DNA from: a bacterium
GTDB lineage: Bacteria; Joyebacterota; Joyebacteria; Joyebacterales; Joyebacteraceae
Assembly (NCBI GenBank): GCA_025774935.1
Contig: JALGZK010000001.1
Location: 148,266-212,265 of the forward strand
Direction: 5' to 3'
Length of the DNA: 64,000 nt
Of this stretch, positions 3,713-50,670 are shown in pieces. Under the pieces are notes generated by a model. That model was given only the letters and a program-made list of their open reading frames with translations, did no database searches and had not been told where the DNA came from. The position numbers and the translations under genes were made by a program. How positions within the stretch are numbered: position 1 is the first letter of the stretch; each line of letters starts with the position of its first letter.

Positions 3713-6700
3713 ATGCGTGTAGATCGCACGCCGCGGACCATACTCGTCGCCGGGGCCGCCACGGTCGCGGCGCTCCTGTCCGTGGTGGCGCTGCCTCTAC
3801 CGCTCCACACGCAGGAGGCCGAGGGACCGCCGGAGGGAGCACCCGCCGACACCGTGGCTGAGCAGCCGCCGACGCCCGCTGCCGAGGTCGTCGTGGAGCC
3901 ACTCGCCGGGCCCGAAGGGGCCGCTCCGGACGGGCCGCCGGCGCTTCCCGACGCGACGGGGGTCGAGAGCGCCCCGCCTGAGGCAGCGGCGGGCGCGGCC
4001 GCCGACTCGCTCCACGAGTTCGCGCTGCCCAACTCGCTGGCGCTTGAGTTTGCGCCCCCCGACACCTTCATCGGCCCGCCGACCGACATGTACGAGGCCG
4101 CGCTCGGGCCCGACCTTCCTCCGGTCGATCCGTACGCGCTCGGCGTGGCGCTTCCCCACACGGTACCCCCCTTCGTGAGACCGTGGGACCTCTCGGCCAT
4201 CCGTGGCCGCAGGGGCCTCGACGTCGTGGCGCCGGAGGTGATCATGTCTCCCGTCGCCGGGACGCCATTCACCCGCGAACTCGTCGTCGACCGCGAGCGC
4301 GACTCGATCGTGCTCGTGACGCGCGCGGGCGACTCGTTCAAGCGCGTGAGCTACGCGGCCCCGCTCTCCGAGTTCATGCGCCACGGCGGGGGGGAGAGGG
4401 TCGAGGACACCTGGATCACGACGTCGCAGTACGAGCTCGGCAAGGGCGTCGAGTCCGGACCGGGGGGACTGCTCGACATCGACATCCCGATGCCCCTCGG
4501 CGCAGGAGCGAACCTGAGGGTGCGCGGGAGCGAGCGGATCACGTTCGGCGGACAGACGAGCTACGTGGTCGAGGCGCTCGACTCGGAGGGCGGCGCTCCG
4601 TCGCGGTTCCCGCAGCTCGACATGGAGCAGCAGCTCACGGTGAACCTCGAGGGGACGATCGGCAACAAGATCCACGTGTACGTCGACCACAGGAGCGGCG
4701 GCGACACGTTCGGGACCGGAAAGGCGAACGAGATCCGTGTTCACTACGAGGGCGAGGAGGACGAGATCGTCCAGAGGATCGAGCTTGGCGAGGTGAACCT
4801 GTCTCTTCCGGGGACCGAGTTCGTGAGCTACAGCGGTCACGCGCAGGGGTTGTTCGGGGCCAAGATGCTCGCGAAGCTCGGGAAGCTCGACGTGACAGCG
4901 ATCGCGAGTAAGGAGGAAGGAAAGACGTCCGGCGCGAGTTTCACGGGGACGTCGCAGGCCGACTCGCTCGTGATCAAGGACATCCAGTACAAGGCCGGCA
5001 CCTTCTTCGCGGTCGACAGCCCGTCGCTCAAGTACGCCGACCGGGCCGTCGAGAACATCTCTGTCTACATCGATGACTTGAACGGCGCGAACGACGTCGA
5101 GACGGGTGCGCAGGTCGGAGTCGTGTACCTCGTTGAGGAGGAGGGCACGATCGATCCCGGCGACACGACCGCGGTGAAGCAGATCGGCCGGTTCGACGAG
5201 CTCGTGGCGCTCGAGGACTACCTCTTCGACAACCAGAGCGGAGTGCTCGAGTTCCTCTTCCCGATCCCGGACGGCCACGTTCTGGCGGTGAGTTACAATC
5301 GCTTCGACCCGTACTCCGTGGGCGGCGCCGACGGTGACACCCTGCGCCTCAAGATGATCAAGAAGGACGGCCGAGTCCTCGGGAGCCCCTGGGAGCCGAC
5401 GAGGCGGTTCCAGCTCAGGCACGTGTACGACTTGGGCGCCGACAACATCCCCGAAGAGGGATTCGCGCTCACCATCCGCAAGAAGAGCGCGTCGGGAGAG
5501 GACCCGGACGTGGAGAACGGCGTCCCGTACGTCGAAATCCTCGGACTCGACACGGAGGGCGCCGGAGGCGATCCGACGCCGGACGGCGCGGTTGACCCCC
5601 AGTGGCTCGATCTGGAGAAGGGCTACCTCTACTACCCGTACTACACACCGTACTGCCCCGGCTGGGACACAACGGGCTTCTACTACGATCCGGGGAACCC
5701 GCCGCCTCCCGAGTTCGTCGCGGAGGAACTCGAGGAGTACAACTGCGCGGTCTACAACAACGAGGTCTTCCAGGCTGGCGACGACCTCTACTACATGGTC
5801 GTCAAGTACAGCAGGCCCCAGACGACGTTCTACCTGGGACAGATCAACATCATCGAGAACAGCGAGATCGTACGGCTGAACGGCGTCCCGCTCACGCGTG
5901 GGACCGACTACACGATCTACTATCCGGCCGGGCAGCTCACGCTCCTGAACGAAGAGGCGAAGGAACCCGAGGCGAAGGTCACCGTCGAGTTCGACTACAA
6001 GCCGTTCGGGATCGCGGGGGAGAAGACGCTTCTCGGAGGCCGCGGCGTCTACCGCTGGAGCGAGAACGTCGAGCTCGGGACGACCTGGATGTACCAGAGC
6101 AAGGGGACGCCGGACGACCGTCCCCGGCTCGGCGAAGAGCCGACCAGGAACGTCGTGGGAGACGTGAACCTCTCGGCGGACTTCGCCCCGTACTGGATGA
6201 CGGCGGCGGCCGACGCGGTTCCCCTCGTCGACACGGACGTGCTCTCGCGCCTCAGGATCGCCGGCGAGGCCGCCGTCAGCATCCCGGAGCCGAACACGAA
6301 GGGCTTCGTCTCGATCGACGACATGGAGGGTGTCGATCAGACGAACATGCTCGGCGTGCAGCGCCGCCTGTGGTCGTTCGCGAGCGCACCGGAAGAGCTC
6401 GGAGTAGAGATCACGGACCGAATGCCCATCGACTGGTACAACCCGGACCGCAAGGTCCGGGAGGGCGACCTCCACCCGAACCTCCCCACGAGCGAGGCCA
6501 ACGAGACGCACACGGTGCTCGAGATCGACTACGACGCCGCGAACTCGGCCTCGTGGGCCGGACTGATGCGGCTCATCTCCAAGCTGGGAAGCGACTACTC
6601 GAGGGACACGTACTTCGAGATGTGGGTCAACGACGACGGGCATCGTCAGGGCAAGATCCACATGGACCTCGGCACGATCAGCGAGGACTATTACCCGCTC

Positions 6701-9700
6701 GACCCCGCGATCGGTCCGAACGGAGAGCTGGACACCGAGGACGTCGACATCCCGCCGAACGGGTACGACGCCGACGAGGACACGGGCCTCGACAACGTGT
6801 GGGGAGCCGACGGCGACAACGTGCCCGGCGACGACGGGGACGACGACTACGCGTTCAGCTTCGGCTCGGACGACTACAGTCAGATCAACGGCACGGAGGG
6901 CAACGAGAGGTTCGACACTGAGGACCTGAACGGGAACACGTACCTCGACGTAGAGAACCGCTACTGGGAGCTCGTCATCGATCTCTCGGACACGACGTAC
7001 CTCATGCAGGACAACAGCGACCCGGATCAGGTCCCCGATCCCGAGAAGCGAACGGACTGGCGCCTGTACCGCATCCCGCTCTCCCACGCGACGTCGGTCG
7101 GGGGCGTGCTGGACTGGACAGTGATCAAGTCCGCCAGGCTCTGGGTGGAGGACCTCACGGTCGGCGCCGAGCCCCTCATGATCGGATCGCTCGACATCAA
7201 GGGCAACACGTGGGAGCGGCAGGCCGTGAGGGACGAGGAAGGGAATCCGGTTCCGGAAGAGGAGCTGGGCGATCTCGAGTTCATCGTGGGAGCGGTGAAC
7301 ACGAAGGAGGATCCCGAGTACGCCAACGACCCGCCGTTCCCCCCGGGGATCGACTCGGAGACGAACCTGCCGGAGCGCGAGCAGTCGCTGTCCCTGAACT
7401 TCCTGAACCTACCGGGCGAGTGGAACGTCTCCGCGAAGAACGCCTTCTTCTCCGAGGAGGACTACACGCGTTACGAGACCCTCGAGTTCTACGTGCACGG
7501 TGACGACGACGTGGCAGACGGGACGCGGTTCTTCCTGCGCCTCGGGGCGGACAGTCTGAACTTCTACGAGTACAGCCTCGAGCTTAGAGAAGGTTGGCGT
7601 CAGGACCTGGGAAGCGCGTCGAACAGACTGGCCGTCGCGTTCAAGTCGTTCACCGACCTCAAGCTCGATCCGTACGCCGACCAGGACACGGTGGCCGTCT
7701 GGGGTGACACGACGCGTGTGAAGGGCGAGCTCTTCAGGCGAGTCGGCTGGCCGTCGCTCTCGAGGATCAGCGCGCTTGCGGTCGGAGTGAGGAACGACAG
7801 CGAGGACTTCGTGGGGAACGAGATTTCCGGCTCGGTCTGGGTCGACGAGCTCCTGCTCACGGACGTGCGGAAGGAGATCGGCTGGGCGGAGCGTGTGACG
7901 ATCAACTCGAAGTTCGCAGACCTCGCGGTGATCGACTTCGACTTCAGGCACGTCGACGAGAACTTCCACACCCTGAAGCAGACGCGGGGATCCGGTTCGG
8001 ACAACGTCGTCTACAACCTCACCGGCACGCTCAACTCGGACAAGTTCGTGGGGGGCATGGGGCTCTCCGCGCCCCTGAACTTCACGTGGAAGAAGACGCA
8101 AAGTCGACCGGAGTTCTCGACTGGGTCGGACATCGTCCTTGATGCGGAAGAGAGCGAGGAGGAGAAGACCGTCTCGCGTGAGCGGACGCTCGCCGCGTCT
8201 CTCGCAAGGAGGAGACAGTCGCAGAACTTCTGGACACACCTGTTCATCGACGGCCTCGCGCTCAGAGCGTCCGTCTCCGACAACGTGCGGCAGTCGCCGA
8301 CCAGGATCGACACGTCGAGCACGATCCGCGGCAGAATCGCCTACAAGTACCAGCCCGAGAGGTCCCCGATCAGGCTCTTCGGCAACACGGACCTCTTCGT
8401 GAAGCCCACGAGTCTGCGGTTCCTCGTGGAGACGCACCTGATCCACAACAAGAGCTACGACGTCGCGGCCGACGGACTGGTCACGCGCAGGGTGAACACG
8501 CACGACAACAAGCTGAACGCGGACGGGAACATCGACTTCCAGTTCCTGGACAACCTCCGGACGACGCACGGCGTGTCCTCGAGGCGCGACCTGACTCGGC
8601 CGATCAAGGAGATCGGCGATGTCACGGTGGGACTCAACATGGGCTCGGAGACCGAGCGCCGATACGCCAACAGCCTCAACTTCAACCCGAAGTTCGGCCA
8701 GTGGTTCGCGCCGCAGTACAGCTTCTCCTCGAACTACACGGACAGCCACGGCCCGGAGATCAGGCGGCCGGGAGATCCCGCGAAGGTGCACAACATCCGG
8801 TCGCAGACGAACCAGGAGCTGCGTGCGAGCTTCGACCTGAAGAAGCTGCTCGGTCCCGGCCCCGCTGCGATGCCGTCGCGACCGCCTCCGCGCGAGCGGC
8901 AGCCCTCGAGGACGGGCACGAGCGGGAGCACGGGACGCGAGAGTCCCGACTCGGGATCGGTCGGAGCGGCGGGCGGCCGCGAAGCGCCGGAAGGGACGCC
9001 CGGCGCCTCCGGGGCTCCGGAGCCCGGGAGAAGCGAGGGGACGGGAGAGGAAGATGCCGGAGAGGGCCGCCAGGGGCAGGAGGGCGCCGAGGGCCAGGAG
9101 GGCGAGGCGGGAGACCAGACGGGAGAGCAGGAGGGGGAGCAGGAAGGGGAGCAGGAGGAGCCGCCGGGTGAGGGGCCCGGACTGGGCGACGTCGTGCGTC
9201 CCATTGTCACGTTCCTGCGTGAGATGGACGCGATCGACGGGAGAATCGGTCTGAGGTGGGACTCGAGGTACGACCGCGTCCCGCACGAGGACGTTCCGGA
9301 CTGGAAGTACAAGCTCGGGCTAGACAGGGGCCGCGACGCGGACGACCGGACCGAGGAGACGACCTTCGACCTCGGAACGGGATTCAAGTTCACGAACCAG
9401 ATCCGTCTGAAGGGGGACTTCAAGCGAACGCACTCGGGCAGATGGTACAAGAGCGTGGTGTCCGACACGATCTTCATCATCAGCCAGACAAAGTCGATGA
9501 ACGAGACCACGAAGGGGACGTTCTCGTGGAACGCGCTCGAGAAGATCGGACCGCTTTCGGGAGTGTTCCAGAGCGTGCGCGCGCGGAGCGGGATCGAGTA
9601 CCGCCGGTCTTACTCCGGACCGGTGGGGACGCCGACCTCCGAGGGGAGCGCGCTCCTGTTCAACCCGATCGTCTCGGTCGACACGAAGTTCAAGAACGGC

Positions 9701-10126
9701 CTGAGCGCGAACCTCGCCTGGGACAGGAAACGCACGCTGTCACACAGCCTGACGGGAGCGGGCTCCGTGACCGAGGACAAGACGTCGTCGTTGAGCCTGA
9801 CGCTCAACTACAGGTTCTCAGCGCCTCAGGGACTCAAGCTCCCGTTCTTTGGCCAGAGCGTGAAGTTCACGAGCAACCTCGACACGGCACTCACGTTCCG
9901 GACGGGCTCGAAGGAGACGCGGACGGCTCAGGACGAGTCGAGTCTGTCGCAGGTCGACCCGACGTCATCGACGAGGGACATCTCCGTCGTCGCGGACGCG
10001 ACTTACAGCTTCTCCCGGAACGTGTCCGGAGGACTTCAGGTCAACTTCTCGCAGAGCCGGGACGTCAAGCGGGAGCAGACCCGGCGGACAATCGGCATGC
10101 ACGTGACAGCGGAGTTCAAGTTCTAA
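3713..10126 (+). CDS. sprA: Giant (2137 aa) secreted outer-membrane beta-barrel protein, SprA/Sov-like T9SS translocon candidate
   Basis: Uninterrupted 6.4-kb ORF with an N-terminal signal peptide (MRVDRTPRTILVAGAATVAALLSVVALPL) and a C-terminal aromatic OMP signature (…VTAEFKF-COOH). Its size class matches SprA. A cargo gene with the T9SS C-terminal sorting-domain signature is present in the window (29662-31668). The ORF itself is near-certain; the SprA assignment is inference without HMM search. Confidence 0.6.
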   Translation: MRVDRTPRTILVAGAATVAALLSVVALPLPLHTQEAEGPPEGAPADTVAEQPPTPAAEVVVEPLAGPEGAAPDGPPALPDATGVESAPPEAAAGAAADSLHEFALPNSLALEFAPPDTFIGPPTDMYEAALGPDLPPVDPYALGVALPHTVPPFVRPWDLSAIRGRRGLDVVAPEVIMSPVAGTPFTRELVVDRERDSIVLVTRAGDSFKRVSYAAPLSEFMRHGGGERVEDTWITTSQYELGKGVESGPGGLLDIDIPMPLGAGANLRVRGSERITFGGQTSYVVEALDSEGGAPSRFPQLDMEQQLTVNLEGTIGNKIHVYVDHRSGGDTFGTGKANEIRVHYEGEEDEIVQRIELGEVNLSLPGTEFVSYSGHAQGLFGAKMLAKLGKLDVTAIASKEEGKTSGASFTGTSQADSLVIKDIQYKAGTFFAVDSPSLKYADRAVENISVYIDDLNGANDVETGAQVGVVYLVEEEGTIDPGDTTAVKQIGRFDELVALEDYLFDNQSGVLEFLFPIPDGHVLAVSYNRFDPYSVGGADGDTLRLKMIKKDGRVLGSPWEPTRRFQLRHVYDLGADNIPEEGFALTIRKKSASGEDPDVENGVPYVEILGLDTEGAGGDPTPDGAVDPQWLDLEKGYLYYPYYTPYCPGWDTTGFYYDPGNPPPPEFVAEELEEYNCAVYNNEVFQAGDDLYYMVVKYSRPQTTFYLGQINIIENSEIVRLNGVPLTRGTDYTIYYPAGQLTLLNEEAKEPEAKVTVEFDYKPFGIAGEKTLLGGRGVYRWSENVELGTTWMYQSKGTPDDRPRLGEEPTRNVVGDVNLSADFAPYWMTAAADAVPLVDTDVLSRLRIAGEAAVSIPEPNTKGFVSIDDMEGVDQTNMLGVQRRLWSFASAPEELGVEITDRMPIDWYNPDRKVREGDLHPNLPTSEANETHTVLEIDYDAANSASWAGLMRLISKLGSDYSRDTYFEMWVNDDGHRQGKIHMDLGTISEDYYPLDPAIGPNGELDTEDVDIPPNGYDADEDTGLDNVWGADGDNVPGDDGDDDYAFSFGSDDYSQINGTEGNERFDTEDLNGNTYLDVENRYWELVIDLSDTTYLMQDNSDPDQVPDPEKRTDWRLYRIPLSHATSVGGVLDWTVIKSARLWVEDLTVGAEPLMIGSLDIKGNTWERQAVRDEEGNPVPEEELGDLEFIVGAVNTKEDPEYANDPPFPPGIDSETNLPEREQSLSLNFLNLPGEWNVSAKNAFFSEEDYTRYETLEFYVHGDDDVADGTRFFLRLGADSLNFYEYSLELREGWRQDLGSASNRLAVAFKSFTDLKLDPYADQDTVAVWGDTTRVKGELFRRVGWPSLSRISALAVGVRNDSEDFVGNEISGSVWVDELLLTDVRKEIGWAERVTINSKFADLAVIDFDFRHVDENFHTLKQTRGSGSDNVVYNLTGTLNSDKFVGGMGLSAPLNFTWKKTQSRPEFSTGSDIVLDAEESEEEKTVSRERTLAASLARRRQSQNFWTHLFIDGLALRASVSDNVRQSPTRIDTSSTIRGRIAYKYQPERSPIRLFGNTDLFVKPTSLRFLVETHLIHNKSYDVAADGLVTRRVNTHDNKLNADGNIDFQFLDNLRTTHGVSSRRDLTRPIKEIGDVTVGLNMGSETERRYANSLNFNPKFGQWFAPQYSFSSNYTDSHGPEIRRPGDPAKVHNIRSQTNQELRASFDLKKLLGPGPAAMPSRPPPRERQPSRTGTSGSTGRESPDSGSVGAAGGREAPEGTPGASGAPEPGRSEGTGEEDAGEGRQGQEGAEGQEGEAGDQTGEQEGEQEGEQEEPPGEGPGLGDVVRPIVTFLREMDAIDGRIGLRWDSRYDRVPHEDVPDWKYKLGLDRGRDADDRTEETTFDLGTGFKFTNQIRLKGDFKRTHSGRWYKSVVSDTIFIISQTKSMNETTKGTFSWNALEKIGPLSGVFQSVRARSGIEYRRSYSGPVGTPTSEGSALLFNPIVSVDTKFKNGLSANLAWDRKRTLSHSLTGAGSVTEDKTSSLSLTLNYRFSAPQGLKLPFFGQSVKFTSNLDTALTFRTGSKETRTAQDESSLSQVDPTSSTRDISVVADATYSFSRNVSGGLQVNFSQSRDVKREQTRRTIGMHVTAEFKF

Positions 10127-11028: not shown

Positions 11029-11240
11029 GCGGGCCTGCTGCTCGGGGCCTCGTCCGGGCGCCCGCGGGCGCCCCGGACCGGTCCTCCCCGCACCCGACTC
11101 GAGTTCGGCCTCCCAGGGCCCGCTGCGAGCCCTTCGCCCAAGTTTTCGCTTGCGCCCCCCGGGGGCCCGTGCTACCTTTTGTCGCGGGAAGTGGGCTGGG
11201 TGCCCACTTTCTCCGTATACGGCCCGGAAAGGGTGCGAGC

Positions 11241-11690: not shown

Positions 11691-11751
11691 CGAAGCCCGG
11701 CGGCGGGCGAGCCCGCCCGGCCGGTCAACTCGAGTTGAGGAGACACGCAAG

Positions 11752-13434: not shown

Positions 13435-13560
13435 CGAGACTCAGCGTGAGGCTCGCAGCGCGGAGGGTCGGCGACGGCAGGGCGAGCGTCGCGACCGACG
13501 GAAGACCGACACGGTGCCGTCGGGACACGCATGCTGACAGGAGCGACACGGAGGCAACAC

Positions 13561-15969
13561 GTGGGGAAGAAGCGAGTATACCAGGTCGCGAAAGAGTTCA
13601 GGATATCGAGCGAGGCCCTTATCGGCATGCTCAAGAAGCTCGGCGCCGAGGCGACGAGCCACATGAACGCCATCGACGATGACGTGGTTGAGAAGGTGCG
13701 GGCGGAGTTCGAGAAGGAGAAGGACGCGCTCAAGAAGGAGTACGCCAAGAAGGTCAGGAAGGCGGTCCGCGAGCGCACGAAGAAGGCCGAGGAGCAGAAG
13801 GCCAAGGAGAAGAAGGCGGCGGAGAAGAAGGCCCCCGAGAAGAAGCCGAAGAAGACCGCGAAGCCCGCGGCGGCGAAGGCAGGTCGCGCGAAGGCAACGG
13901 CCGAAGCAACGGCGACGAAGCCCGCGGCGCCGACCAAGAAGCCGGCAGCGCCGGGCAGGAAGGCGGCGCCGGCGGCGAAGCCAGCTGCCGCGAAGCCTGT
14001 GGTGTCCGCAGCGAAGCCCGCGGCGCCGACCAGGGCGGAGGCAGGGCGGAAGGGGAAGAAGCGCAGGAAGCCGCGGGTCGATCAGAAGACGGTCGAGGAT
14101 ACCGTCAGGAGGACCCTCGCCGCGACCGGCGAACGACGTCCGAGGCGCAAGAGGCGCAAGGTGCGGAGCGACGGCGCCATCATCGAGGAGGAGATAAAGG
14201 TCCAGATCCCGGAGTTCGCGTCGGTTGGGGAGTTCGCGGAGGCACTAGACGTGCCGCCCAACGACGTGATCAAGAAGTGCCTGGACCTGGGCCTGATGGT
14301 GACGATCAACCAGCGGCTCGATGAGGACACGATTCTGCTCCTCGCCGATGCGTTCGACGAAGAGGTCGAGTTCCTGAAGGAGTACGGCGAGGACATCCTC
14401 GAGGAGCAGCATGACGTCGCCGTAGAGGGTGCCGAGACCGTTCCCAGGTCTCCTGTCGTCGCGGTGATGGGGCACGTCGATCACGGCAAGACCCTTCTCC
14501 TGGACTACATCAGACGGACGAACGTCGTGGCTGGCGAGTCGGGCGGGATCACGCAGCACATCGGTGCGTACGAGGTCGTGCACGACGGGAAGAAGGTCAC
14601 CTTCCTCGACACGCCGGGTCACGAAGCGTTCACGGCGATGCGCGCGCGCGGCGCGCAGATCACCGACATGGTGGTTCTCGTCGTGGCGGCGGACGACGGC
14701 GTGATGCCCCAGACCGTCGAGGCCATCGACCACGCGAGAGCGGCTGGGGTCCCAATCGTTGTTGCGATCAACAAGAGCGACCTCCCGACAGCGAACGCGG
14801 ACAAGGTGAAGACGGAGCTGTCTCAGCAGGGTCTCACGGTGAGCGAGTGGGGCGGAGACATCACGTCTGTAGAGACGTCCGCAAAGACGGGAGACGGTGT
14901 CACGAAGCTCCTGGAGGAGCTGCTCTTCCAGGCGGACCTCCTCGAGCTCGAGGCGGTGGACACCGGACCGGCCCGCGGGGTCGTGGTCGAAGTGGAGAAG
15001 CAGCGTGGCCGCGGCGTCGTCGCGACGGTGCTCGTTCAGAGCGGGACGTTCAACTCCGGCGACCCGTTCGTCGTGGGGCTCGCCGACGGCAAGGCGAGAG
15101 CGCTCTACGACGAGAGGAACCGGGAGGTCATGACGGCGGGCCCGTCGAAGCCTGTTCTGGTGTCGGGACTCGCCGGCGTTCCTCAGGCAGGTGACATCCT
15201 CGCGGTGGTGAGCGACGAGAGGCTGGCGCGTGAGATTAGCGCGAAGAGACGACAGCAGCAGTGGGAGCGTCAGACGCGGTTCCAGAACCGCGTGACCCTC
15301 GAGGATCTCCACAAGCAGATCGAGGCCGGGTCCATCAAGGAGCTCCGGATCGTGATCAACGGCGACGTCGACGGGTCGGTCGGCGCGCTGGCGGACTCGC
15401 TCGAGAAGCTGTCGACGGCCGAGGTCAAGGTCGAGGTCATCCGGAAGGCGGTCGGCGCCGTCACCGAGACGGACGTCCTCCTGGCCGCAGCGTCGAACGC
15501 GATCATCGTCGGGTTTCACATCGGCGTGTCGGTGCACGTCAAGGAGCTCGCGAGGCGGGAGCACGTCGAGATCCGGCTGTACAAGGTCATCTACGAGGCA
15601 GTCGAGGACATCCGCGCGGCGATGGAGGGGCTCCTGGAGCCCGAGCGCCGCGAGGTCGTCGTCGGAACCGCCGAAGTGCGCGAGATATTCCGCGTTCCCC
15701 GGCTTGGCATGATCGCCGGCTGCTATGTCCTGTCGGGCGCGGTCAGGCGCGGGGCCAAGGCGCGGCTGATTCGCGAGGAGATGCTCCTCCACGAGGGGAC
15801 CATCGACTCGCTCAAGCGCTTCAAGGACGACGTACGGGAGGTCCAGACAGGCTTCGAGTGCGGCATCGGGATCGAAGGAATGGACGACGTTCAGGCGGGC
15901 GACCTGATCGAGGTGTACGACATCGAGGAGGTGGCGCGGAAGCTGAGCGACACGGCAGCGGCCGCGTGA
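13561..15969 (+). CDS. infB: Translation initiation factor IF-2
   Basis: GTG 13561 is preceded by GGAGG. The IF2-N motif is present ([28 protein letters not shown]), followed by a K/A-rich linker, the GTPase domain ([14 protein letters not shown]…DTPGHEAF…NKSD) and the C-terminal domain. Confidence 0.9.
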
Positions 15970-29661: not shown

Positions 29662-31668
29662 CTACTTCAGGAGCGTCATCTTCGTGAACGCGCTCTCGCT
29701 GCCGGCACTCACCTTGGCGAAGTAGACACCGCTCGCGAGACGGTGCCCGTCGTCGTCCTTCCCGTCCCAGACGGCGAGCGCGGGCCCCGGAGGGAGCGTC
29801 TCGTCGACGAGCGAGCGCACCACGCGTCCGCTAAGGTCGAGGATCGTGAGCTCGACGCGCTCGGCGCCGGACGGCACGGTGTACGCGATCTTCGTCACGG
29901 GATTGAACGGGTTCGGGAAGTTCTGTGAGATCGCGAGCCTGTGCATCTCGCCTTCCTCGACACCCACCGCCGGTGCGAACCAGTCCAGGATCCTCCCGAG
30001 GAGCGTCGTCCGGTTGCTCGGAGTCGGATCGTCCATGCTCACGGACTCGAACGCGAACGTCGTGAAGACGATCTTGTGTCCGTTCTCGGCTACCTTGAGT
30101 CCCTGGATCCCGGAGGTGCTCGTGAAGATGGTCTCGGACGGCGAGTCGATCACGATGGCCTCGGCGTTGTTCCCGAGAGGGTACCAGAGCTCGTCCAACA
30201 CCATCCCGTCCGAGATCACATCGCCGTCGACGCCCACGACCGTGTACTGCCCGACTGCGTTTATCCACGACGTGATGTGCATGTAGTCCGTGGTCATCGT
30301 CGTCGAGCCGGGGAGACTCGAGAGGTAGTTCATGCTCGAGAGATAGAGGTTCCCGCCGCCGTCCAGGTACGACATCAGGACGTCCTCGTCATCGCCGAGG
30401 TCCGTCGCGAAGCCGGAGCCGGTCGTCCACAGAACCGTGGAGTACGACGAGAGCAGATCCAGCTCGGGTCGTCCGCGGTCGTCGGCGATCCAGACCGTCG
30501 CGCCGAGCCCCAGGTTCGAGAGAGGCTCCTCCCACCACGCGTGCCAGCCCCATCCGTCGTCGTCCGCGACGAGGAGGAGGGAGGGCACCTCGACGAACGT
30601 CGAGAAGGAGACCTGGTCGCTGGCGGCCCTACTGCCACCGCTCACGGCCGACAGGGTCGTCACGGCCATGCCCTCAGCCGTCCCGATGTTGTCGACGACG
30701 CGTACCTCGAGGTCGAGATCCTCGCCGACACCGAGGGCGAACTCCGTCGGCTCGGTGTACCAGGTGCCTCCGACCTCCCGGAAGCTCGCCTCCCAGTCCG
30801 CCGGCCCGACTCCGTCGGGCAGCACGTCCTGGTTGACGCTCACGGTGACGACGTTCGCCGCGAGCCCGATGTTCGAGAGCGTCGCCGTGTACGTGGCGGT
30901 TCCGAGGTAGCCGATCTCCTTCGCGTAGTCGGTCGTCGCCATCTGGACGGAGTAGAGATCGGGTACGACCTGCGCGTTGTACACCACGTGTGGCGACATG
31001 TCCTCGATGAAGACCACCACATCGAGCGCGCCGACGAGCGGCCAAGGGGTGTCGGTGATCGTGAACTCCCTGTGGACCACGACGGAGTCGCCGGGAGCCG
31101 TCAGGACCACATCCTCGTGGGGCAGATGGTCCCGCATGGTCCAGTTGTAGTGTTCGCCGGTCTTCTCGATCACGACGAACTGGGCCCTGAGAACCCCTGC
31201 GCTCACCGGGTCGACGACCTTGAACGTCGCGTCGACCCAGCCGCCCGTCTCGTCGAAGACTCCGTTCGTGCGAATCGTGATCGGGGTGGGAACGGGGAGC
31301 CGCTGGTTTATCCGGTCTCTGTACGCCGAGTAGACGCCGCTCCCGCCGCCGGTATACGTGAGAACCGCGTCGAACTTGCACGTGGGGTGCGCACTGATGT
31401 CCGGGTAGAGGAGCTGCCGGTTGCGGGCCTCGCTCGTGTAGTAGTTGCCGCCAATCCTGCTGTGCCAGTAGATGATGACGAGCTCTTCTTCACTGAAGGT
31501 CCCGTCTCCTCTGAGATTCTCGAGCGCCAACTGCGCATCGGGGCAGAAACTTCAGTTGGTGCCCCCGAAGAGCTCTGCGAGCACCGCTCGCTGCGCGGCA
31601 AATGCCGGCGTGGCCGCGCCACAGAGGATCAGGGCAGAGAGCCCCAGGATCGCCAATCTTCTCGACAT
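29662..31668 (-). CDS. Secreted T9SS-type cargo protein (Por_Secre_tail C-terminal domain) whose signal-peptide exon is separated from the mature part by one in-frame TGA (31552-31554): selenoprotein candidate or nonsense pseudogene
   Basis: ATG 31668 with AAGGAG 6 nt upstream encodes a canonical signal peptide (MSRRLAILGLSALILCGAATPAFA|AQ…). In the same frame a TGA occurs after …ELFGGTN, and the frame continues …SFCPDAQLALENLRGDG… for 622 aa. It ends with a T9SS CTD (…VRSLVDETLPPGPALAVWDGKDDDGHRLASGVYFAKVSAGSESAFTKMTLLK). Confidence 0.6.
31521..31540 (-). other. SECIS-like bulged hairpin 11 nt downstream of the in-frame UGA (mRNA: CGA-U-GCGC-AGUUG-GCGC-UCG)
   Basis: Hand-folded from the minus-strand mRNA: a 7-bp stem with a single bulged U and a 5-nt loop containing GU. 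Spacing to the UGA matches the E. coli fdhF SECIS arrangement to within 1 nt. Confidence 0.3.
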
Positions 31669-31911
31669 CCATCACTCCTTTCGCGGCAGCGCCGCTCCGC
31701 TCTCCGGGAATCCCACCCGCGGGGTCTCGCGAAAGGCAGGATTCCCTCGTGTCCAACAGCCTCCAGCCATGTGCGTGGGACGCGCTTCACCGTTCGGGGC
31801 GCCGCGTGCAACGCCCCCATGCCACACTACACATTCTACCGCATCCGGGCGAGAGATTCAATGGCTCGCTTGGGCAGACAGGCCTCCCGAGGGGTCCAGG
31901 GGCCAAAAGGC

Positions 31912-37127: not shown

Positions 37128-37214
37128 GGAGGGCTAGACCTAACTGGTAAGGCAGCGGTCTTGAAAACCGCCGGGCGCAAGCCCTTGGGGGTTCGAGTCC
37201 CTCGCCCTCCGCCA
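37128..37214 (+). tRNA. tRNA-Ser (anticodon TGA)
   Basis: Cloverleaf folded by hand: acceptor GGAGGGC/GCCCTCC, anticodon loop CTTGAAA, long variable arm, T-loop GGTTCGAGTCC, 3' CCA encoded. Confidence 0.9.
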
Positions 37215-37292
37215 GTATCGGAGCATGCCAGAGGGGACACGCAGGGCCGGCGCGCGGAGCGGACTCCGCGCGCGTCAGGCATCGAGGACACC

Positions 37293-37382
<90 letters not shown>

Positions 37383-37392
37383 GAAGACGACC

Positions 37393-37469
<77 letters not shown>

Positions 37470-40883: not shown

Positions 40884-43057
40884 GGATCCGTCGCGTCAGA
40901 CTTGTGAACTTCCGGCGGTTCCGCGACCGCGAGGTCAGCTTCGGCCCGGGACTGAACCTGATCGTGGGTCCGAACGAGGCCGGCAAGAGCACGATCCTAG
41001 ACGGAATCGCGACGGCTCTCTTCTGCGACGTCGCGTCGACGGCGAAGGCGGTGAAGGATCTCGAGCGCTGGGGCTCGAAGGGCGCCATGCGCCTCGAGCT
41101 CGACTTCGAGCACGACGGCGAGATCTACCGCCTGCGGAAGGACTTCGGGGCTCGTCGGGCCGTGCTCGAGAAGGGGGACGGGTCCGAGACTCTCGGCGAC
41201 AGGGGAGAGGTTGAGGCCCGTCTTCGCGAGATGGTGGGATTTCGGGAGCAGCAGGCGTTCGAGTCGGTGGCGGCGGTCCGACAGGGAGAGCTCGCGGCTC
41301 TCGAGGGAAAGGGGGGGAAGTCGAGACGCTCGGATCTCCTTCCCATGATCGAGAAGAAGATGACGAGCTCGAGCGGGGCGACCGACGCGGCGGGGGTCAT
41401 CGGACGACTTGAGAAGTCGATCGCGGCAATGGGTGTGGGGGTCAAGCGCCTCGCCGACCGGCCGGGACCGATTCGATCGCTGATGGACCAGGAAGAGGAG
41501 CTCGCCGAGAGGATATCGAGGTCGGGTAAGGCGTGGGCCGACGCCGTGAGGACGCGGAAGGAACTGACGTCGGAGCGAGCAGATCTCGCGAAGGCGGAGC
41601 AGCGCCTCGAATCCATCGAGGGAATGCTCGAGTCGGAGGGTGCGAGGAGCAGGTACGTCGCGGAGCTCGAGGACGTGCGGCAGAAGCTCTCCCGGAACGC
41701 CTCCGAGGTCGGCAAGCTCCGGAAGCTCAAGACCGACATCGCCGAAGCCTACGAGGGCATCGACGGGACCCTCCCGGAGCTCGGCAAGACCGTGGAGGAA
41801 GCGAAGCGCGACTTCGATGCCGCGGGAGAGAGGATCGCGAAGCTCGAGGAGCGATCGCCGGCCGGCGATTGGAGGACCGCCTCGAAGCGACCGGGTGCCG
41901 CGGCCATCGTGCTCGGTGCCGCCGCGCTCGCGCTCTTCTTCGCGCCCGTCTACGCGCCGATCCCGCCGGGTGTGCGCCTGTGGCTCATCCTGGGCGGGGC
42001 CGCGCTCGGTGCGCTCACGGTCTACTTCTTCCGCAGGGGCGCCCGGCTATGGGGGTTCGCGCACGACATGCAGCGCGAGCTCGGGGAGAAGGAGAGGGCC
42101 GAGAGGTCGTACCGGGAGGCGCTCGGCGCTGCGGGCGTCTCCACGTACGAGGAGTACGGCCGCCTCGCCGCCAGGCAGCAGGAGCTCCACGCCAGCATCC
42201 AGAAGTGGAACGCGCTTCTGCAGGAACAGACGGGGGAGGGAGACGCCGACAAGTTCGAGGAGAGCTTGCTGACTGACGGCGCCGCCCTCGAGCGCCGCGC
42301 CGGTGAACTCGAGGAGAAGCTCGAGGAGAGCGGTGGCGCGGAGAACGTCCTGTCCCCTGTCGAGGCGGCGCGGCTGAGGAACGAGAGGAACGGACTGCTC
42401 GAGACGATCGACCGTCTGCGGAAGAGCACGATAGCGAAGGAGGTCCGGCTCGAGGAGGCGGCCGTGGACACGGCCCTGCCGGACCTGGAGGCGCGTCGTG
42501 AGAACGTCGCGCGCGAGCTCGCGCTCGTGCTCCGGAGGGAGCGCGTGCTGCGGCTCGCTCACGAGGGACTCCTCACCGCGCTCGACAGAACGAAGAGAGA
42601 GGCCTCGACGGCCCTTGCGCCGGTGGTGTCCCGCGTGCTGGGCGGAGTGACGCTCGGACGATACTCGGACGTCAGCGTTGCGACCGATCTCGAGTTCAGC
42701 GTGAAGAACCCGGACCCGGTCGAAGGTGCGCCTCCCACTCTCGGCGGGGACGAGCTCAGCGCCGGGACGATCGACCAGTTCTACCTGGCCGTCCGCTACG
42801 CGCTGCTCGAGTTCCTGTCCGGACCGTGTGGAGCGCCGTTCCTGCTCGACGACGTGCTGGTGCACTTCGATCCGGAGAGGCGGGATGCCGCGATCGGCGT
42901 CCTGCGGGAGATCGCGCGCCAGCGGCAGGTCATCATGCTCTCCTGTGAGAACCACGCTGCCGAATCGGCGGACGAGGTCGTCCGGCTGGACGGAGTGAAC
43001 GCGGGGAGCGCGTCGCCCGGAGGCGAGGCGCCTCAGGAGGTGCCGCGTGAGAGGTGA
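40880..43057 (+). CDS. SbcC/Rad50-like SMC-type ATPase (AAA_23) with a two-helix transmembrane hairpin in the middle of the coiled coil
   Basis: GTG 40880 overlaps the upstream stop (GTGA). Walker A (GPNEAGKST), a long coiled coil, signature/D-loop region (LSAGTIDQFYLAVRYALLEF … FLLDDVLVHFD). Two hydrophobic segments (AAIVLGAAALALFFAPVYAPI / LWLILGGAALGALTVYFF) sit where SbcC normally carries its CxxC zinc hook. Confidence 0.75.
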   Translation: MRIRRVRLVNFRRFRDREVSFGPGLNLIVGPNEAGKSTILDGIATALFCDVASTAKAVKDLERWGSKGAMRLELDFEHDGEIYRLRKDFGARRAVLEKGDGSETLGDRGEVEARLREMVGFREQQAFESVAAVRQGELAALEGKGGKSRRSDLLPMIEKKMTSSSGATDAAGVIGRLEKSIAAMGVGVKRLADRPGPIRSLMDQEEELAERISRSGKAWADAVRTRKELTSERADLAKAEQRLESIEGMLESEGARSRYVAELEDVRQKLSRNASEVGKLRKLKTDIAEAYEGIDGTLPELGKTVEEAKRDFDAAGERIAKLEERSPAGDWRTASKRPGAAAIVLGAAALALFFAPVYAPIPPGVRLWLILGGAALGALTVYFFRRGARLWGFAHDMQRELGEKERAERSYREALGAAGVSTYEEYGRLAARQQELHASIQKWNALLQEQTGEGDADKFEESLLTDGAALERRAGELEEKLEESGGAENVLSPVEAARLRNERNGLLETIDRLRKSTIAKEVRLEEAAVDTALPDLEARRENVARELALVLRRERVLRLAHEGLLTALDRTKREASTALAPVVSRVLGGVTLGRYSDVSVATDLEFSVKNPDPVEGAPPTLGGDELSAGTIDQFYLAVRYALLEFLSGPCGAPFLLDDVLVHFDPERRDAAIGVLREIARQRQVIMLSCENHAAESADEVVRLDGVNAGSASPGGEAPQEVPRER

Positions 43058-44549
43058 TCGCTGCCCGCGCTGCGGGGCGCGTCTCGAGCTCGTCGGTGAG
43101 CGGTGGGACTCTGGAGACGGTCGAATAGGCCGCACGCTGCGCTGCGGCAGTTGCGGCGGCGTGTTCGACGCACGAGGAGGCGGTCCCGGGGGCCAACGAG
43201 GCCGGCCTGCCCCGGCCGCGTGCGCCGCAGCGGCGCTCCTCTGGGCCGTGGTCCTCCTCGCCGTTCTGTGGGTGGTTCTGAGACTGCTCCCGTACGGTGG
43301 GCGAGCGCAGGTCTACCGTGCGGCGTCTGCGTTCGTGGAGGGCTTCCTCCACCCGCTGTGGTTGGCGGCGCTCGTCCTCGCCGGCGTCGCGCTCTTCCTG
43401 TGGAAGCGGCGGGCGTCTCGCGTGGAGCTGGCGCCGGCCGCGGCGGTGGCGCCCGACGTCCATCTTCGTGCCGAGCCGCCCGGGAAGATCACCGCAGTGA
43501 TCTCCGACTCGCGTGGGGCGGCGGTGCGGGACTTCGTCGTCGAGCGGAGCCCTGAGGCCGAGGAGCGCATACTCGCGGGCCTCCGCGAGCTGGCCGCCAG
43601 GAGCGCCGCCTTCGACCACGCGCGGGAGGGCGGAGCGACGGACCGTACCGCGTCCCCCGAGGAGGTGGCGGAGACGCAGCGCCGGATCTACTCCCTCGGG
43701 CTCGAGATCGGCGTGTCGCTTCTGGGAGGCGACTCGGGAGCGGGGCCCAGGATCGCCGATCTGCCGGGCGATCATCTGCTGCTCAGGATCCAACCCGAGC
43801 TCTCGCGCATTCCCTGGGAGCTCCTCGTGCCGCGCCCCGGGGGGCAGTTCCTGTGGCAGCTCTTCCACACGTCCCGACAGATCCGCACGGAGACCGCCGG
43901 ACGGACGGCGGGAGCGAGACGGTGCGCTCCCCTCAGGGTGCTGCTCATGGCGAACCTCGAGGCCGGACGCTCCGGCCGCGATCTTCCGCACGCCGAGCGC
44001 GAGGCGGCCGAACTGCTCGAGCTCGCTGCGTCGCGCCCCGACCTCCTCAAGGTCGAGAGGAAGTCGCCGAGGACGCACGCGGAGTTCGCGACACTCCTCT
44101 CGGAGGGATTCGACGTCGTCCACTTCGCGGGTCACTCGCTCGGTAGCCACGCGGGGGCGGGGTGGGATCTCGGTGAGGGGGAGGGTATCACCCTCGACGC
44201 ACTCGGACCCTGTCCGGAACGGACCCCTTCGCTCGTCTTCGCGAACACGTGCGGCACGGACGGCGGCGATGTGGGAGCGGAGAGCCGCTCCTGGGACGCG
44301 GCCCGTCACTTCCTCGAGTGGGGCGTCCAGGCATACCTCGGGACGCTCTGGGACCTTCACGACGGCGGGAGCGCGAGGTTCGCCGGCGTCTTCTACCGGC
44401 GGCTCGCCGCGGGCGCCACGCTCGCGGCGGCGGTCTCGGCGGCGCGCTCGGCACTCCTCGGCGTCGAGCCCGTCACCTGGGCGAACTACGTCCTGTACGG
44501 GGACCCCGCGCTCGTCGTAGCGGCCGCCTCCGGGCCGATTCGGTCGTAA
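43047..44549 (+). CDS. Zinc-ribbon + 2TM + CHAT-domain (caspase-like) protein
   Basis: GTG 43047 is preceded by AGGAGG and overlaps the upstream gene by 11 nt. N-terminal CPRC…CGSC zinc ribbon, two TM helices, a CHAT domain with a His (VVHFAGHS) and Cys (LVFANTCGTDGG) dyad. Confidence 0.75.
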   Translation: MRGDRCPRCGARLELVGERWDSGDGRIGRTLRCGSCGGVFDARGGGPGGQRGRPAPAACAAAALLWAVVLLAVLWVVLRLLPYGGRAQVYRAASAFVEGFLHPLWLAALVLAGVALFLWKRRASRVELAPAAAVAPDVHLRAEPPGKITAVISDSRGAAVRDFVVERSPEAEERILAGLRELAARSAAFDHAREGGATDRTASPEEVAETQRRIYSLGLEIGVSLLGGDSGAGPRIADLPGDHLLLRIQPELSRIPWELLVPRPGGQFLWQLFHTSRQIRTETAGRTAGARRCAPLRVLLMANLEAGRSGRDLPHAEREAAELLELAASRPDLLKVERKSPRTHAEFATLLSEGFDVVHFAGHSLGSHAGAGWDLGEGEGITLDALGPCPERTPSLVFANTCGTDGGDVGAESRSWDAARHFLEWGVQAYLGTLWDLHDGGSARFAGVFYRRLAAGATLAAAVSAARSALLGVEPVTWANYVLYGDPALVVAAASGPIRS

Positions 44550-44641
44550 AGCCCGTCCGGGGCCGACGACTGCCCCGCCGTGACGCTCGTACTCCCGCGA
44601 AGAAGACCGGGCTCCCGAACGACTGTTGTATGAGGAGAGGA

Positions 44642-45274
44642 ATGTCCGCCTTGGCGAGCCGTGGAAAGATCGGTGCCGACGATGCGCGCATGATCGACCG
44701 CCTGAGGGCCGGCGAGTCCGAGGCCTGGGAGGCGTTCGTGGAGCGCTATCGGAAGCTCATCTACAGCGCAATCGTGCGATCGAACGCTCGCTTTCGTGCG
44801 GAGTGGGACGAGACGGCGATGGAGGAGATCTTCCAGGAAGCGGTCTTCAAGCTCCTGCGGAGGAACGGCAGAGCGCTCGCGTCCTGGAAGGGCGACTGCC
44901 GCCTCGAGACCTGGATCTACCGGATCGTGCGGAACGTCTGCATCGACGTACTGAGGAAGCGGTCGCGGCGCCGGGAGTCCGACGAGCTCCCAGAAGACGG
45001 TGAAGGTCGCGCGGTCGCGGGAACGCCACGCGGACCGGGGACGCCGGAGAACAGGGATCTCAGGATATCCCTCGAGCAGGCGATCGACCGCTCGCTGTCA
45101 TCGAAGGAGGCGCTCGTGGTCCGACTGATCTACTTCGAGGGGTTCACGTACCGGGAGGTCGCGGAACGCATGGGCGTGAGCGTGGGCGCGATGAGCGGTC
45201 TGGTCTTCCGCGCGCTCGCGAAGCTCCGCACGGACGGCGGAGTGAACAGGGAGTGGGAAGGGGAACGAGGATGA
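44642..45274 (+). CDS. ECF (sigma-70 family group 4) RNA polymerase sigma factor
   Basis: ATG 44642 is preceded by GAGGAGAGG. Sigma region 2 (…FQEAVFKLLRR…) and a region 4 HTH (…FTYREVAERMGVSVGAMSGLVFRALAKLR). Confidence 0.8.
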   Translation: MSALASRGKIGADDARMIDRLRAGESEAWEAFVERYRKLIYSAIVRSNARFRAEWDETAMEEIFQEAVFKLLRRNGRALASWKGDCRLETWIYRIVRNVCIDVLRKRSRRRESDELPEDGEGRAVAGTPRGPGTPENRDLRISLEQAIDRSLSSKEALVVRLIYFEGFTYREVAERMGVSVGAMSGLVFRALAKLRTDGGVNREWEGERG

Positions 45275-46149
45275 CGAAGGACGGATGTCCTGCGGGAGAA
45301 AAGCTCCTGGGACTCGTGCGGGACGCTCTCGACGACGGGGCGTCGAGTCGCGTCCGGGCGCACGTGAGTTCGTGCGAGGCGTGCCGGGAGCGAGCCGCCG
45401 GACTCGAGGAGCTCGTCGGACTGCTGGAACGCGCGGCGACGGAGCCGCTTCCTGACGATCTCGAGCCCTCCCGGGCGGCCTGTCCCGATCCCGAGCTCGT
45501 CGCGGCTTACGCGGACGGCTCATCGGACGAACACGCGTCCGCCCTCGTCGAGCGACACCTCGCAGGATGCGCTTCCTGTCTCGCCGAGGTCGCCGACCTT
45601 TGGCGCCTCTCTTCCGCCGGGAGCCCAGTCGACGCGCCAGACCGAGCGGTCAGCGCGGCAATCGCGCGTCTCGAGTCGGAGGCGCGGACCGCGATCGTAC
45701 GGTGGGCAGGCGCGACCGTCTCCGTGGTGAAGGACTTCGCGCGGTCCCAGGCGGAGGCCCTCGAAGGAGCTGGCCGAGGCGCGCACGAGCTCGCGCCCGC
45801 GTTCGCGCGGGGGAGCGACGAAGCCGTGCTGCTCTCCTGGCGCGGCGACGACGATCTCCTGCTCGAAGGCAGGATCGACATCCGAGGAGGAGGGCGTCCC
45901 GCCCTCACGGGGAGACTGACGCGTCTCGGGAGCCCCGATCTCAGCCTCTCCGCTGCCATGAGCGGGGACGGGGAGCGGCACGGCCCCGAGTCGCTGGACT
46001 CCGACGGGCGGTTCGGGCCCTGGGCCCTCGCCCGAGGCCAGAACACCCTTCGCGTCACTGGCAGGACCGTCGGCGAGCGGGGGCTCTCGCTGACGATCGA
46101 GATCACCGAGGACAACGCCGAGGATCCGACCGAGATCCCGGCCGAGTAG
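45271..46149 (+). CDS. Anti-sigma factor with two ZAS-type HxxxCxxC motifs
   Basis: ATG overlaps the sigma gene stop (ATGA). Motifs HVSSCEAC and HLAGCASC are present. There is no obvious TM segment, so it is a cytoplasmic ZAS-like anti-sigma. Confidence 0.6.
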   Translation: MTKDGCPAGEKLLGLVRDALDDGASSRVRAHVSSCEACRERAAGLEELVGLLERAATEPLPDDLEPSRAACPDPELVAAYADGSSDEHASALVERHLAGCASCLAEVADLWRLSSAGSPVDAPDRAVSAAIARLESEARTAIVRWAGATVSVVKDFARSQAEALEGAGRGAHELAPAFARGSDEAVLLSWRGDDDLLLEGRIDIRGGGRPALTGRLTRLGSPDLSLSAAMSGDGERHGPESLDSDGRFGPWALARGQNTLRVTGRTVGERGLSLTIEITEDNAEDPTEIPAE

Positions 46150-50305: not shown

Positions 50306-50396
50306 GGTGGGGTGACGGAGCTGGTCGATCGTGGCGGTCTCGAAAACCGTTGTACCCCTTGGGGTACCGTGGGTTCGAATCCCACCCCCACCGCCA
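50306..50396 (+). tRNA. tRNA-Ser (anticodon CGA)
   Basis: Acceptor GGTGGGG/CCCCACC, anticodon loop CTCGAAA, long variable arm, GGTTCGAATCC T-loop, CCA encoded. Confidence 0.9.
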
Positions 50397-50406
50397 GAAC
50401 ACCCGC

Positions 50407-50497
<91 letters not shown>

Positions 50498-50529
50498 GCA
50501 CAAGGAACGCATTCGTCACACCTCAGGAT

Positions 50530-50605: not shown

Positions 50606-50670
50606 GATTCCCTCGGGGCCCGCTCGCGTCCTGTGAGTCGGGCCCCGGGTGACAGAATCCCCGGAGGGTC

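Follow-up and report, generated by a model that had tools for sequence, protein, structure and literature searches.

An in-frame UGA at the predicted thioredoxin-like active site of a putative type IX secretion cargo protein is probably a selenocysteine codon

The window considered here is a 64-kb stretch of DNA (64,000 nucleotides of contig JALGZK010000001.1, with positions counted from its first letter), and on its minus strand lies a gene whose product resembles a cargo protein of the T9SS (type IX secretion system) and whose reading frame contains a single in-frame TGA at 31552-31554, shortly after the signal peptide. The question raised by this locus is whether the UGA ends a short leader, marks a damaged gene or a base-call error, or is read as an amino acid and, if so, as which one. 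The conservation of the TGA among homologs, its alignment with Cys, the coding conservation that continues across it, the use of TGA as a stop elsewhere in the window, and a set of frozen synonymous sites support the conclusion that the UGA is probably a selenocysteine (Sec) codon in a gene for one 668-residue preprotein, a reading to which we assign a probability of about 0.87. The remaining doubt stems from the selABCD genes, the search for which covered the window only.

RESULTS

A single open frame interrupted by one TGA

An earlier, sequence-only reading of this stretch had proposed a gene starting at ATG 31668, with AAGGAG 6 nucleotides (nt) before it and a signal peptide cleaved between AFA and AQ, whose frame runs through a TGA 14 residues past the cleavage site. 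All of these elements were located on the minus strand as claimed. The start codon is ATG at 31668-31666, preceded by AAGGAG at 31680-31675; the signal peptide is MSRRLAILGLSALILCGAATPAFA, followed by AQ; and the N terminus of the open reading frame (ORF) is MSRRLAILGLSALILCGAATPAFA and, after the cleavage site, AQRAVLAELFGGTN, up to the TGA at 31554-31552. Beyond the TGA, the frame reads SFCPDAQLALENL... and remains uninterrupted as far as a TAG at 29664-29662. The frame is thus open past the TGA, as had been stated, but the length given for the downstream part (622 aa) is that counted from TTG 31530, and 629 codons actually follow the TGA. The ORF listing yields two pieces, namely, a 38-codon ORF (31552-31668) and a 622-codon ORF from TTG 31530, and the public gene call for the window protein (P0001, 622 aa) also begins only at that TTG. 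As the earlier reading had pointed out, such a downstream piece would lack a signal peptide; it would also lack the first strand and the active site of the thioredoxin (Trx) fold described below. The elements of the 5' part of the gene are as follows.

29662..31668, minus strand: complete predicted selenoprotein gene of 668 codons, in which codon 39 is U and TAG (29662-29664) is the stop; a single open frame apart from the TGA
31675..31680, minus strand: Shine-Dalgarno sequence AAGGAG, 6 nt 5' of the ATG, read directly from the sequence
31597..31668, minus strand: Sec-type signal peptide (residues 1-24; n, h, and c regions, by inspection), cleavage being predicted between AFA and AQ
31552..31554, minus strand: in-frame UGA, predicted selenocysteine codon U39, position 1 of UxxC, from the alignment with Cys homologs and the TGA in 10 homologs
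31543..31545, minus strand: TGC, resolving Cys C42 of U-S-F-C; this Cys and the Pro after it are both invariant in the family alignment, and their codons (TGC/TGT and CCN) vary synonymously
31521..31540, minus strand: hairpin CGA[U]GCGC-AGUUG-GCGCUCG, resembling a selenocysteine insertion sequence (SECIS), with a stem from 11 nt after the UGA and an apical loop that holds G24/U25

The TGA is conserved and aligns with a catalytic cysteine

Searches with the full window protein, in which U was written as C, returned 44 family members. About 10 are full length (~670 aa) and read ...AQRTVLAE[LM]FGA[TS]WCGYCPNA..., and in these 10 full-length homologs the window TGA aligns with the first Cys of CxxC (CGYCP/WCGYCP). 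About 30 other members are 545 to 634 aa long and begin at varied Met, Val, or Leu codons just past the CxxC-equivalent motif. The DNA of 10 of these N-truncated homologs was taken from independent assemblies or different metagenomes (L110, two tandem paralogs of L113, L114, L115, L116, L118, L119, L120, and L121), and TGA was found at the identical codon in 10/10, that is, in 11 genes including that of the window. In every one of the 10, an upstream in-frame signal peptide leads into ...AE[LMI][FY]G[GA]xx, the TGA, and then xxCP, and an AxA-type signal-peptide site precedes the active-site motif in all homologs. The nearest homolog, L113_10001 (55% identical), has an N-U-S-F-C context identical to that of the window. 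The comparison of orthologs at this codon, which had been proposed as a check, therefore gave TGA in ten homologs and Cys in ten others.

Pairwise identity among the Sec forms is 46 to 82% (median, 51%), so that the synonymous sites between them are well randomized. Protein conservation is continuous across the TGA (AELFGxTx-U-xxCPxAxxAL), and the nearby codons vary synonymously, Cys +3 being TGC or TGT and Pro +4 being CCC, CCG, CCA, or CCT. The starts called downstream of the TGA differ between homologs in both position and codon, which means that the gene callers point to no conserved reinitiation codon. In a neighbor-joining tree, nine Sec forms make up one clade, and L116_3001 and L118_3001 are nested among Cys forms. 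This indicates that Sec and Cys have probably been exchanged repeatedly within the family, as is usual for selenoprotein families. Published criteria for selenoprotein prediction (PMC1088965) include a TGA aligned with Cys in at least two homologs, for which ten Cys homologs were found here, and a TGA in at least two different sequences, for which there are 11 genes with that of the window.

Two other searches added little to this set. A scan of genome contigs with the single protein returned one close relative only (L001, which ends before the N terminus) plus unrelated C-terminal-domain matches, and a search of metagenome contigs with the family alignment was dominated by the generic PNPFNP sorting domain, with one useful match, the Cys form L030.

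About 30 public entries (P0001-P0035 and P0055-P0058) start just after the UGA and are named hypothetical protein, with 38-aa orphan ORFs upstream. The family is systematically misannotated in public records, in that entries cut at the UGA lose both the signal peptide and the active site.

A SECIS-like hairpin with frozen synonymous sites follows the UGA

With the U of UGA as nt 1, window positions 31540-31521 are nt 15-34. The 20-nt sequence is CGAUGCGC AGUUG GCGCUCG, in which C15-G-A-[U18]-G-C-G-C pairs with G-C-G-C-U-C-G34 around the loop A23-G24-U25-U26-G27; the hairpin CGA-U-GCGC/AGUUG/GCGC-UCG of the sequence-only reading was found at exactly this place. For nt 13-39, this hairpin is the fold of minimum energy (-9.5 kcal/mol), and it also occurs within the fold of the UGA plus 60 nt. 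An alternative 7-bp helix, CCAACUG/CAGUUGG (31527-31559, minus strand, including the UG of the UGA), is preferred in the 61-nt minimum-energy fold; it was rejected as a candidate, the nearest homolog being unable to form it. Taken alone, the window hairpin is unremarkable for a genome of 67% G+C, and it gains significance only via the comparison with homologs.

In eight relatives, the pairs are G15-C33, A16-U32, a variable 17/31, and the core C18-G30, G19-C29, C20-G28, and C21-G27, closing a 5-nt loop of C22 G23 U24 G25 C/A/U26 in which G23 and T24 are invariant. The window and its nearest relative, which has the same GCGC/GCGC arms, are in a register shifted by 1 base (arms G19CGC22/G28CGC31 and, in the window, the loop A23 G24 U25 U26 G27). 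In the alignment of the eight Sec genes that share a register, all eight agree in 87 columns on an amino acid with 4-fold or higher degeneracy, and the codon is identical in only 6 of these columns. Three of those 6 frozen codons are +6, +7, and +9 after the UGA (GCC CGT. GCG), which form the hairpin core; this is 3/3 in the core versus a background of 3/84 elsewhere, with a probability of about 5e-5. Arg +7 is CGT in 8/8 of these genes, though CGT makes up 8 to 24% of their Arg codons, and the effect of this codon is to place G23/U24 in the 5-nt loop closed by C18-G30...C21-G27. In the window, Leu +8 is the rare TTG (2 of 56 Leu codons), giving U25 and U26. All 11 Sec genes have NG opening a 4-to-5-nt loop at nt 21-27, in line with the criterion of PMC1088965 that a stem-loop with a small, G-containing apical loop follow the UGA immediately, and support under this criterion comes from the synonymous-site constraint and not from folding energy. 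From these observations we concluded that an RNA-level constraint is located exactly where a bacterial SECIS is expected, at the right distance from the UGA and with the right loop bases.

A known point of comparison is the SECIS of Escherichia coli fdhF, in which the upper stem-loop spans nt 15-31, 11 nt from the UGA, with a bulged U17 and with G23 and U24 in the loop; SelB contacts U17 and G23 (PMC8659212). The present hairpin resembles it in lying right after the UGA within the coding region, in having an upper stem that starts after 11 nt (nt 15), and in its apical G-U. The earlier reading had put the geometry within 1 nt of that of fdhF, and this held: in the window hairpin (nt 15-34), the bulged U18, G24, and U25 each lie one base from the published positions, and the eight relatives match G23/U24 exactly. 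In most relatives, unlike in fdhF, the bulged U is missing, and bases 17 and 31 form either a mismatch (A17.C31) or a pair (G17-C31); the loop has 5 nt (AGUUG or CGUGC); and a lower helix that includes the UGA can be drawn in only 4/11 Sec genes. In those four (L110, L118, L119, and L120), the UGA and the next 2 to 4 bases (UGAGGC/UGAAG) pair with (G)CUUCA at nt 39-44, within L-Q codons, in an fdhF-like manner; this helix is absent from the window and six others.

Weighing the selenocysteine reading against its alternatives

Several observations weigh against the Sec reading. Folding energy gives it no help, since the 61-nt fold has a z score of -0.18 relative to shuffles, 13% of synonymous recodings of the window peptide fold as well or better (P = 0.13; across genes, these P values run from 0.0025 to 0.83), and the Cys forms are about equally stable, but with different shapes. 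The register of the window hairpin is 1 nt off from that of most relatives. The covariation count favors the hairpin to the extent that 81% of cells are paired versus 27 to 53% when the partner is slid, and one double change was seen, in L116, where a rare TTG Leu codon turns G17-C31 into A17-U31; because the core pairs are invariant, however, shuffles were not exceeded and the covariation did not reach significance. A motif test (stem of at least 4 bp, a 4-to-7-nt loop starting at nt 21-24, and GU within the first four loop bases) speaks for the Sec reading, in that it detected the motif in 9/11 Sec genes versus 1/4 Cys genes and the motif is kept in only 2 to 19% of synonymous recodings per gene (2% for the window), but its definition was made after the data were seen. 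L113_10001 has a 6-to-7-bp stem but the loop AGGCU, with no GU (G24 G25), and L120 has a stem of only 3 bp. The Cys form L124 (P0041, 6001-8019, TGT) retains the full hairpin, including the CGT Arg codon, which may be the trace of a recent TGA-to-TGT (Sec-to-Cys) conversion; in the remaining three Cys forms examined, it is gone. Rfam searches, both at the gathering cutoff and at an E value of ≤10, gave neither a SECIS family nor any other that is relevant to the hairpin. Finally, a tRNA scan found no tRNA-Sec in the 64-kb window, and neither selA, selB, nor selD is among the NCBIfam-matched sizeable ORFs of the window. The tRNA scan of 16 related loci also found nothing, and a scan of the window for other TGA-interrupted frames gave antisense artifacts only, with a filter too crude to recover the known site.

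Among the alternatives, we considered the possibility that the TGA arose from a mistake in sequencing or assembly or from a nonsense mutation of recent date, in which case the gene would be a pseudogene or the codon would really be TGC, TGT, or TGG. A TGA is one base from TGC and TGT, and the sequence-only reading had kept this explanation in play. It is effectively refuted, and its probability is negligible, given that the same TGA occurs in ten independently assembled homologs that are 46 to 82% identical to each other, one of them with N-U-S-F-C at 55% identity, and that the reading frame is uninterrupted both before and after the TGA and shows coding-type conservation. A two-cistron arrangement would instead have a 38-codon leader ending at the UGA and reinitiation at TTG 31530, with the UGA and the hairpin acting as a regulatory or coupling device. 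This would fit with every public annotation, in which 38-aa ORFs lie beside 545-to-634-aa ORFs, and with a TTG located 7 codons past the UGA, but it would leave a downstream product without the signal peptide, the first Trx strand, and the active site. Moreover, the stretch from the UGA to the called starts (xxCPxAxxAL) shows conservation at the protein level, the called starts vary as described above, and the Cys orthologs are single uninterrupted ORFs; we regard this arrangement as very improbable. Indeed, the conservation of the TGA, the variation of the codons around it, and the lack of a shared downstream start together serve to rule out base-call error, recent nonsense mutation, and leader-plus-reinitiation.

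Readthrough of the UGA without Sec, whether by a near-cognate Trp or Cys tRNA, by Cys-tRNA(Sec), or through a lineage-specific reassignment of UGA, would be consistent with the Sec machinery not being found in the window and with the unusual local context of a Trp just 5' of the UGA in most homologs. A genome-wide reassignment is excluded, however, because TGA is the stop of at least 11 well-conserved window genes (lptF, infB, truB, ribF, trkA, asnS, glnA, sbcD, a histidine kinase gene, porC, and recX), as assigned from NCBIfam matches that extend to the profile ends; with TGA an ordinary stop in these genes, decoding at codon 39 must be site specific. In addition, the codon aligns with a catalytic Cys and not with Trp or Gly, an fdhF-like hairpin with frozen synonymous sites is what SelB-dependent decoding needs, and the repeated changes between TGA and TGY on the tree are what selenoprotein families usually show (criteria of PMC1088965). 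Readthrough of this kind is accordingly judged unlikely, and the reading of the UGA as a Sec codon is retained.

The predicted protein combines a thioredoxin module with a C-terminal sorting domain

An AlphaFold model was made of the Cys ortholog P0009 (48% identical and collinear; mean pLDDT, 82). In the model, residues ~29-120 form a thioredoxin fold (beta-alpha-beta-alpha-beta-beta-alpha) with CGYC at the start of helix 1, followed by a beta-sandwich (~125-235), a second beta-sandwich (~240-360), an alpha/beta domain (~364-567), and a C-terminal beta-sandwich. A profile of the N-terminal domain matched thioredoxin 1fo5 in the PDB (E value, 7e-4), with CxxC and the cis-Pro loop aligned, and also Porphyromonas gingivalis HBP35 (E value, 0.004). 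Both hallmarks of the fold were thus found, namely, a CxxC where helix 1 begins and a cis-Pro loop, and U-S-F-C, which had been taken for a UxxC redox motif, does sit at the thioredoxin active site in both the 1fo5 alignment and the P0009 model. The domains of the window protein are as follows.

31303..31593, minus strand: thioredoxin-fold domain, ~residues 26-122, from the profile against the PDB and the P0009 model (approximate boundaries, transferred from that model)
30964..31302, minus strand: beta-sandwich, ~residues 123-235, which with the Trx domain makes an HBP35/Omp28-like module
29974..30585, minus strand: GATase1/ThuA-like alpha/beta domain, ~residues 362-565
29677..29919, minus strand: C-terminal sorting domain of the FlgD_ig/T9SS type A kind, residues 584-664, from Pfam and TIGR04183 matches
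3713..10126, plus strand: gene for the Sov/SprA T9SS outer-membrane translocon (TIGR04189, 529.3 bits against a cutoff of 200; Pfam SprA_N, 89.8 bits)

All of the N-terminal domains (18/18) match NF045500 (best E value, 3.3e-12) and NF033782, "Omp28 family lipoprotein," with scores far below the cutoffs. The window protein scored 22.8 to 24.3 bits on NF045500 against a curated cutoff of 200, which indicates a probable distant homology and not membership. No Omp28 proteins were reached when the N-terminal domain was used in a profile search.

The sequence-only reading had described the product as a T9SS cargo, and this stood in part. The C-terminal ~80 residues clearly match Pfam FlgD_ig (45.8 bits; cutoff, 27), and the window also holds a Sov/SprA ORF of 2,137 codons (TIGR04189, 529 bits), but TIGR04183 Por_Secre_tail is just at its cutoff (23.5 bits versus 23) and Pfam Por_Secre_tail PF18962 is below it (22.5 versus 27). 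Since the window carries the Sov/SprA gene, the Eisenbacteria-type genome from which it comes evidently has type IX secretion; PorU/V and GldKLMN were not seen in the window. The signal peptide, the C-terminal sorting domain, and the SprA/Sov gene make T9SS export of the cargo protein plausible and well motivated, and what tells against it is that the sorting-domain matches are near threshold and that the machinery is represented by one gene.

In P0044 (953 aa), the part of the protein comprising the beta-sandwich, GATase1-like, and C-terminal domains (64% of the query) is fused to an M6 metalloprotease domain, which takes the place of the thioredoxin module; the C-terminal two-thirds of the family may thus be a reusable surface-display scaffold.

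In the mechanism that we propose, translation would start at ATG 31668, and at codon 39 the hairpin at 31540-31521, 11 nt downstream and with GU in its apical loop, would recruit and presumably bind a SelB-type factor carrying Sec-tRNA(Sec), so that Sec would be inserted in place of termination; the selABCD genes would then be expected in the genome. A Sec-type signal peptide would take the chain across the inner membrane, and the FlgD_ig/Por_Secre_tail domain would direct it through the T9SS, the SprA translocon of which is encoded 21 kb away. The mature protein would carry an HBP35/Omp28-like Trx module in which the active site is U-S-F-C in place of C-x-x-C and Sec is the nucleophile in first position, and its most likely role is that of a thiol-disulfide/selenosulfide oxidoreductase at the cell surface or outside the cell.

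Genomic context of the window gene and its orthologs

Relatives share a conserved gene order of a TlpA/AhpC-like redoxin (secreted, with WCKPC), a porin-like DUF6029 protein, a 340-to-360-aa protein, the Sec or Cys cargo gene in one or two copies, and an M14 peptidase with the same C-terminal domain as the cargo protein (L113, 6580-17955; L116, 1-7878; L118; L121, 6477-15760; L123, 2417-10405; and L124, 2697-10440). The Cys forms L123 and L124 lie in the same neighborhood as the Sec forms L113, L116, L118, and L121 and are therefore true orthologs. In L113, there are two tandem Sec paralogs (9848-11905 and 11996-14017), and in L116, the Sec gene is directly followed by a Cys paralog, P0006 (2857-4878 and 5128-7143). 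The Sec/Cys neighbors of L116 and the tandem copies of L113 are natural Sec/Cys pairs within one genome. The thioredoxin and AhpC-like neighbors in related loci were checked for hidden Sec codons, and all are ordinary Cys proteins. In other metagenome-assembled genomes (MAGs), the neighbors of orthologs that share the C-terminal domain are an M14 peptidase and a PAD_porph enzyme.

The window copy of the cargo gene is outside this operon, flanked by glnA and a divergently transcribed cyclophilin gene. It belongs, as does the recA of the window, to a contig of 478,590 bp. The window genes are otherwise of the housekeeping kind and include ahcY, lptF, sprA, rimP-nusA-infB, truB, ribF, pnp, trkHA, asnS, glnA, and the genes for cyclophilin and TPR proteins, together with genes for a NifS-type desulfurase, sbcCD, an ECF sigma/anti-sigma pair, a sensor kinase, a GGDEF regulator, tadA, dnaX, porCAB, pgsA, cinA, recA, recX, and alaS. 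The tRNAs of the window number six, four of them different tRNA-Ser species plus tRNA-Arg and tRNA-Ala. The tRNA clusters at 37128-37469 and 50306-50945 (plus strand) adjoin the SRP RNA, and the Rfam score of the tRNA-Ser(UGA) at 37128 is only 34.6 bits. A gene for a CHAT-domain protein (43047-44549) lies directly 5' of genes for an ECF sigma factor, the N-terminal extension of which is long, and an anti-sigma factor (region 43047-46149, plus strand).

DISCUSSION

The sequence-only reading had called a secreted selenoprotein unusual, which overstates the case, because extracytoplasmic Trx-fold selenoproteins (DsbA-like, DsbG-like, and thiol:disulfide interchange proteins; PMC13188914, Table 1) and the Omp28-related/GOS_C family (PMC13188914, PMC2398784) have already been predicted. 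The DsbA-like, DsbG-like, and thiol:disulfide interchange proteins share with the present protein a UxxC in a thioredoxin fold, export, and Cys orthologs, but they are small and periplasmic, whereas the present protein is multidomain and carries a signal for outer-membrane (T9SS) export. NF045500, "Omp28-related selenoprotein," is the "hypothetical protein GOS_C" of Zhang and Gladyshev (2008), a family with a thioredoxin-like fold, UxxC, and 74 Sec and 312 Cys sequences (PMC2398784; PMC13188914, Table 1). Like GOS_C, the present family is a predicted selenoprotein family that combines this fold with this motif, has numerous Cys homologs, and shows a SECIS-like hairpin past the UGA. Unlike GOS_C, it scores far under the cutoff of that model and comes from Eisenbacteria-type MAGs and not from marine GOS samples; its proteins, of ~670 aa, add two beta-sandwiches and a GATase1-like domain, and they end in a T9SS-type C-terminal domain, in which the two families may also differ. 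Experiments have been made on HBP35, a T9SS cargo that has thioredoxin activity (PMC2907840, PMC3120885). This 35-kDa hemin-binding protein of P. gingivalis (PDB 5y1a) differs from the present protein in having Cys and not Sec, in being half the size, in lacking the GATase1-like domain, and in being only 19% identical. The present family thus appears to be a distant, larger relative of both the predicted selenoprotein family GOS_C and the Cys-type T9SS cargo HBP35.

What is known here is the ordinary kind of bacterial selenoprotein, with a UxxC Trx fold, Cys orthologs, and a coding-region fdhF-like SECIS, the predicted type IX export being the unusual feature. What is new is the family itself, which falls outside existing models and is uniformly misannotated, its multidomain T9SS-cargo architecture, and the host phylum. 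Several family members, and also the closest named RecA proteins (79 to 86% identical to that of the window), are labeled Candidatus Eisenbacteria (NCBI phylum Candidatus Eiseniibacteriota). A literature search found nothing relevant linking Eisenbacteria or Eiseniibacteriota with selenocysteine or type IX secretion, no selenoproteins as T9SS cargo beyond incidental mention, and nothing relevant on Omp28 together with selenoprotein. We put it at about even odds that these genes constitute the first recognized family of T9SS-cargo selenoproteins, located on or released from the cell surface in Eisenbacteria, with repeated Sec/Cys flips, a minimal 4-to-8-bp fdhF-type SECIS in the codons of thioredoxin helix 1, and public copies that are all misannotated as truncated hypothetical proteins.

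No general principle is altered by this finding; the decoding mode and the kind of protein conform to what bacterial selenoproteins lead one to expect. With the predicted protein, the thioredoxin-fold UxxC selenoproteins would gain a multidomain member exported to the outer membrane, and the selenocysteine trait would be implied for Eisenbacteria-type bacteria. The very small SECIS, with G23/U24 fixed by rare codons, would show cleanly how an RNA signal can be overprinted on the codons of a catalytic helix. The Sec/Cys ortholog pairs in one conserved operon would offer a natural system for asking what benefit selenium brings to an extracellular oxidoreductase.

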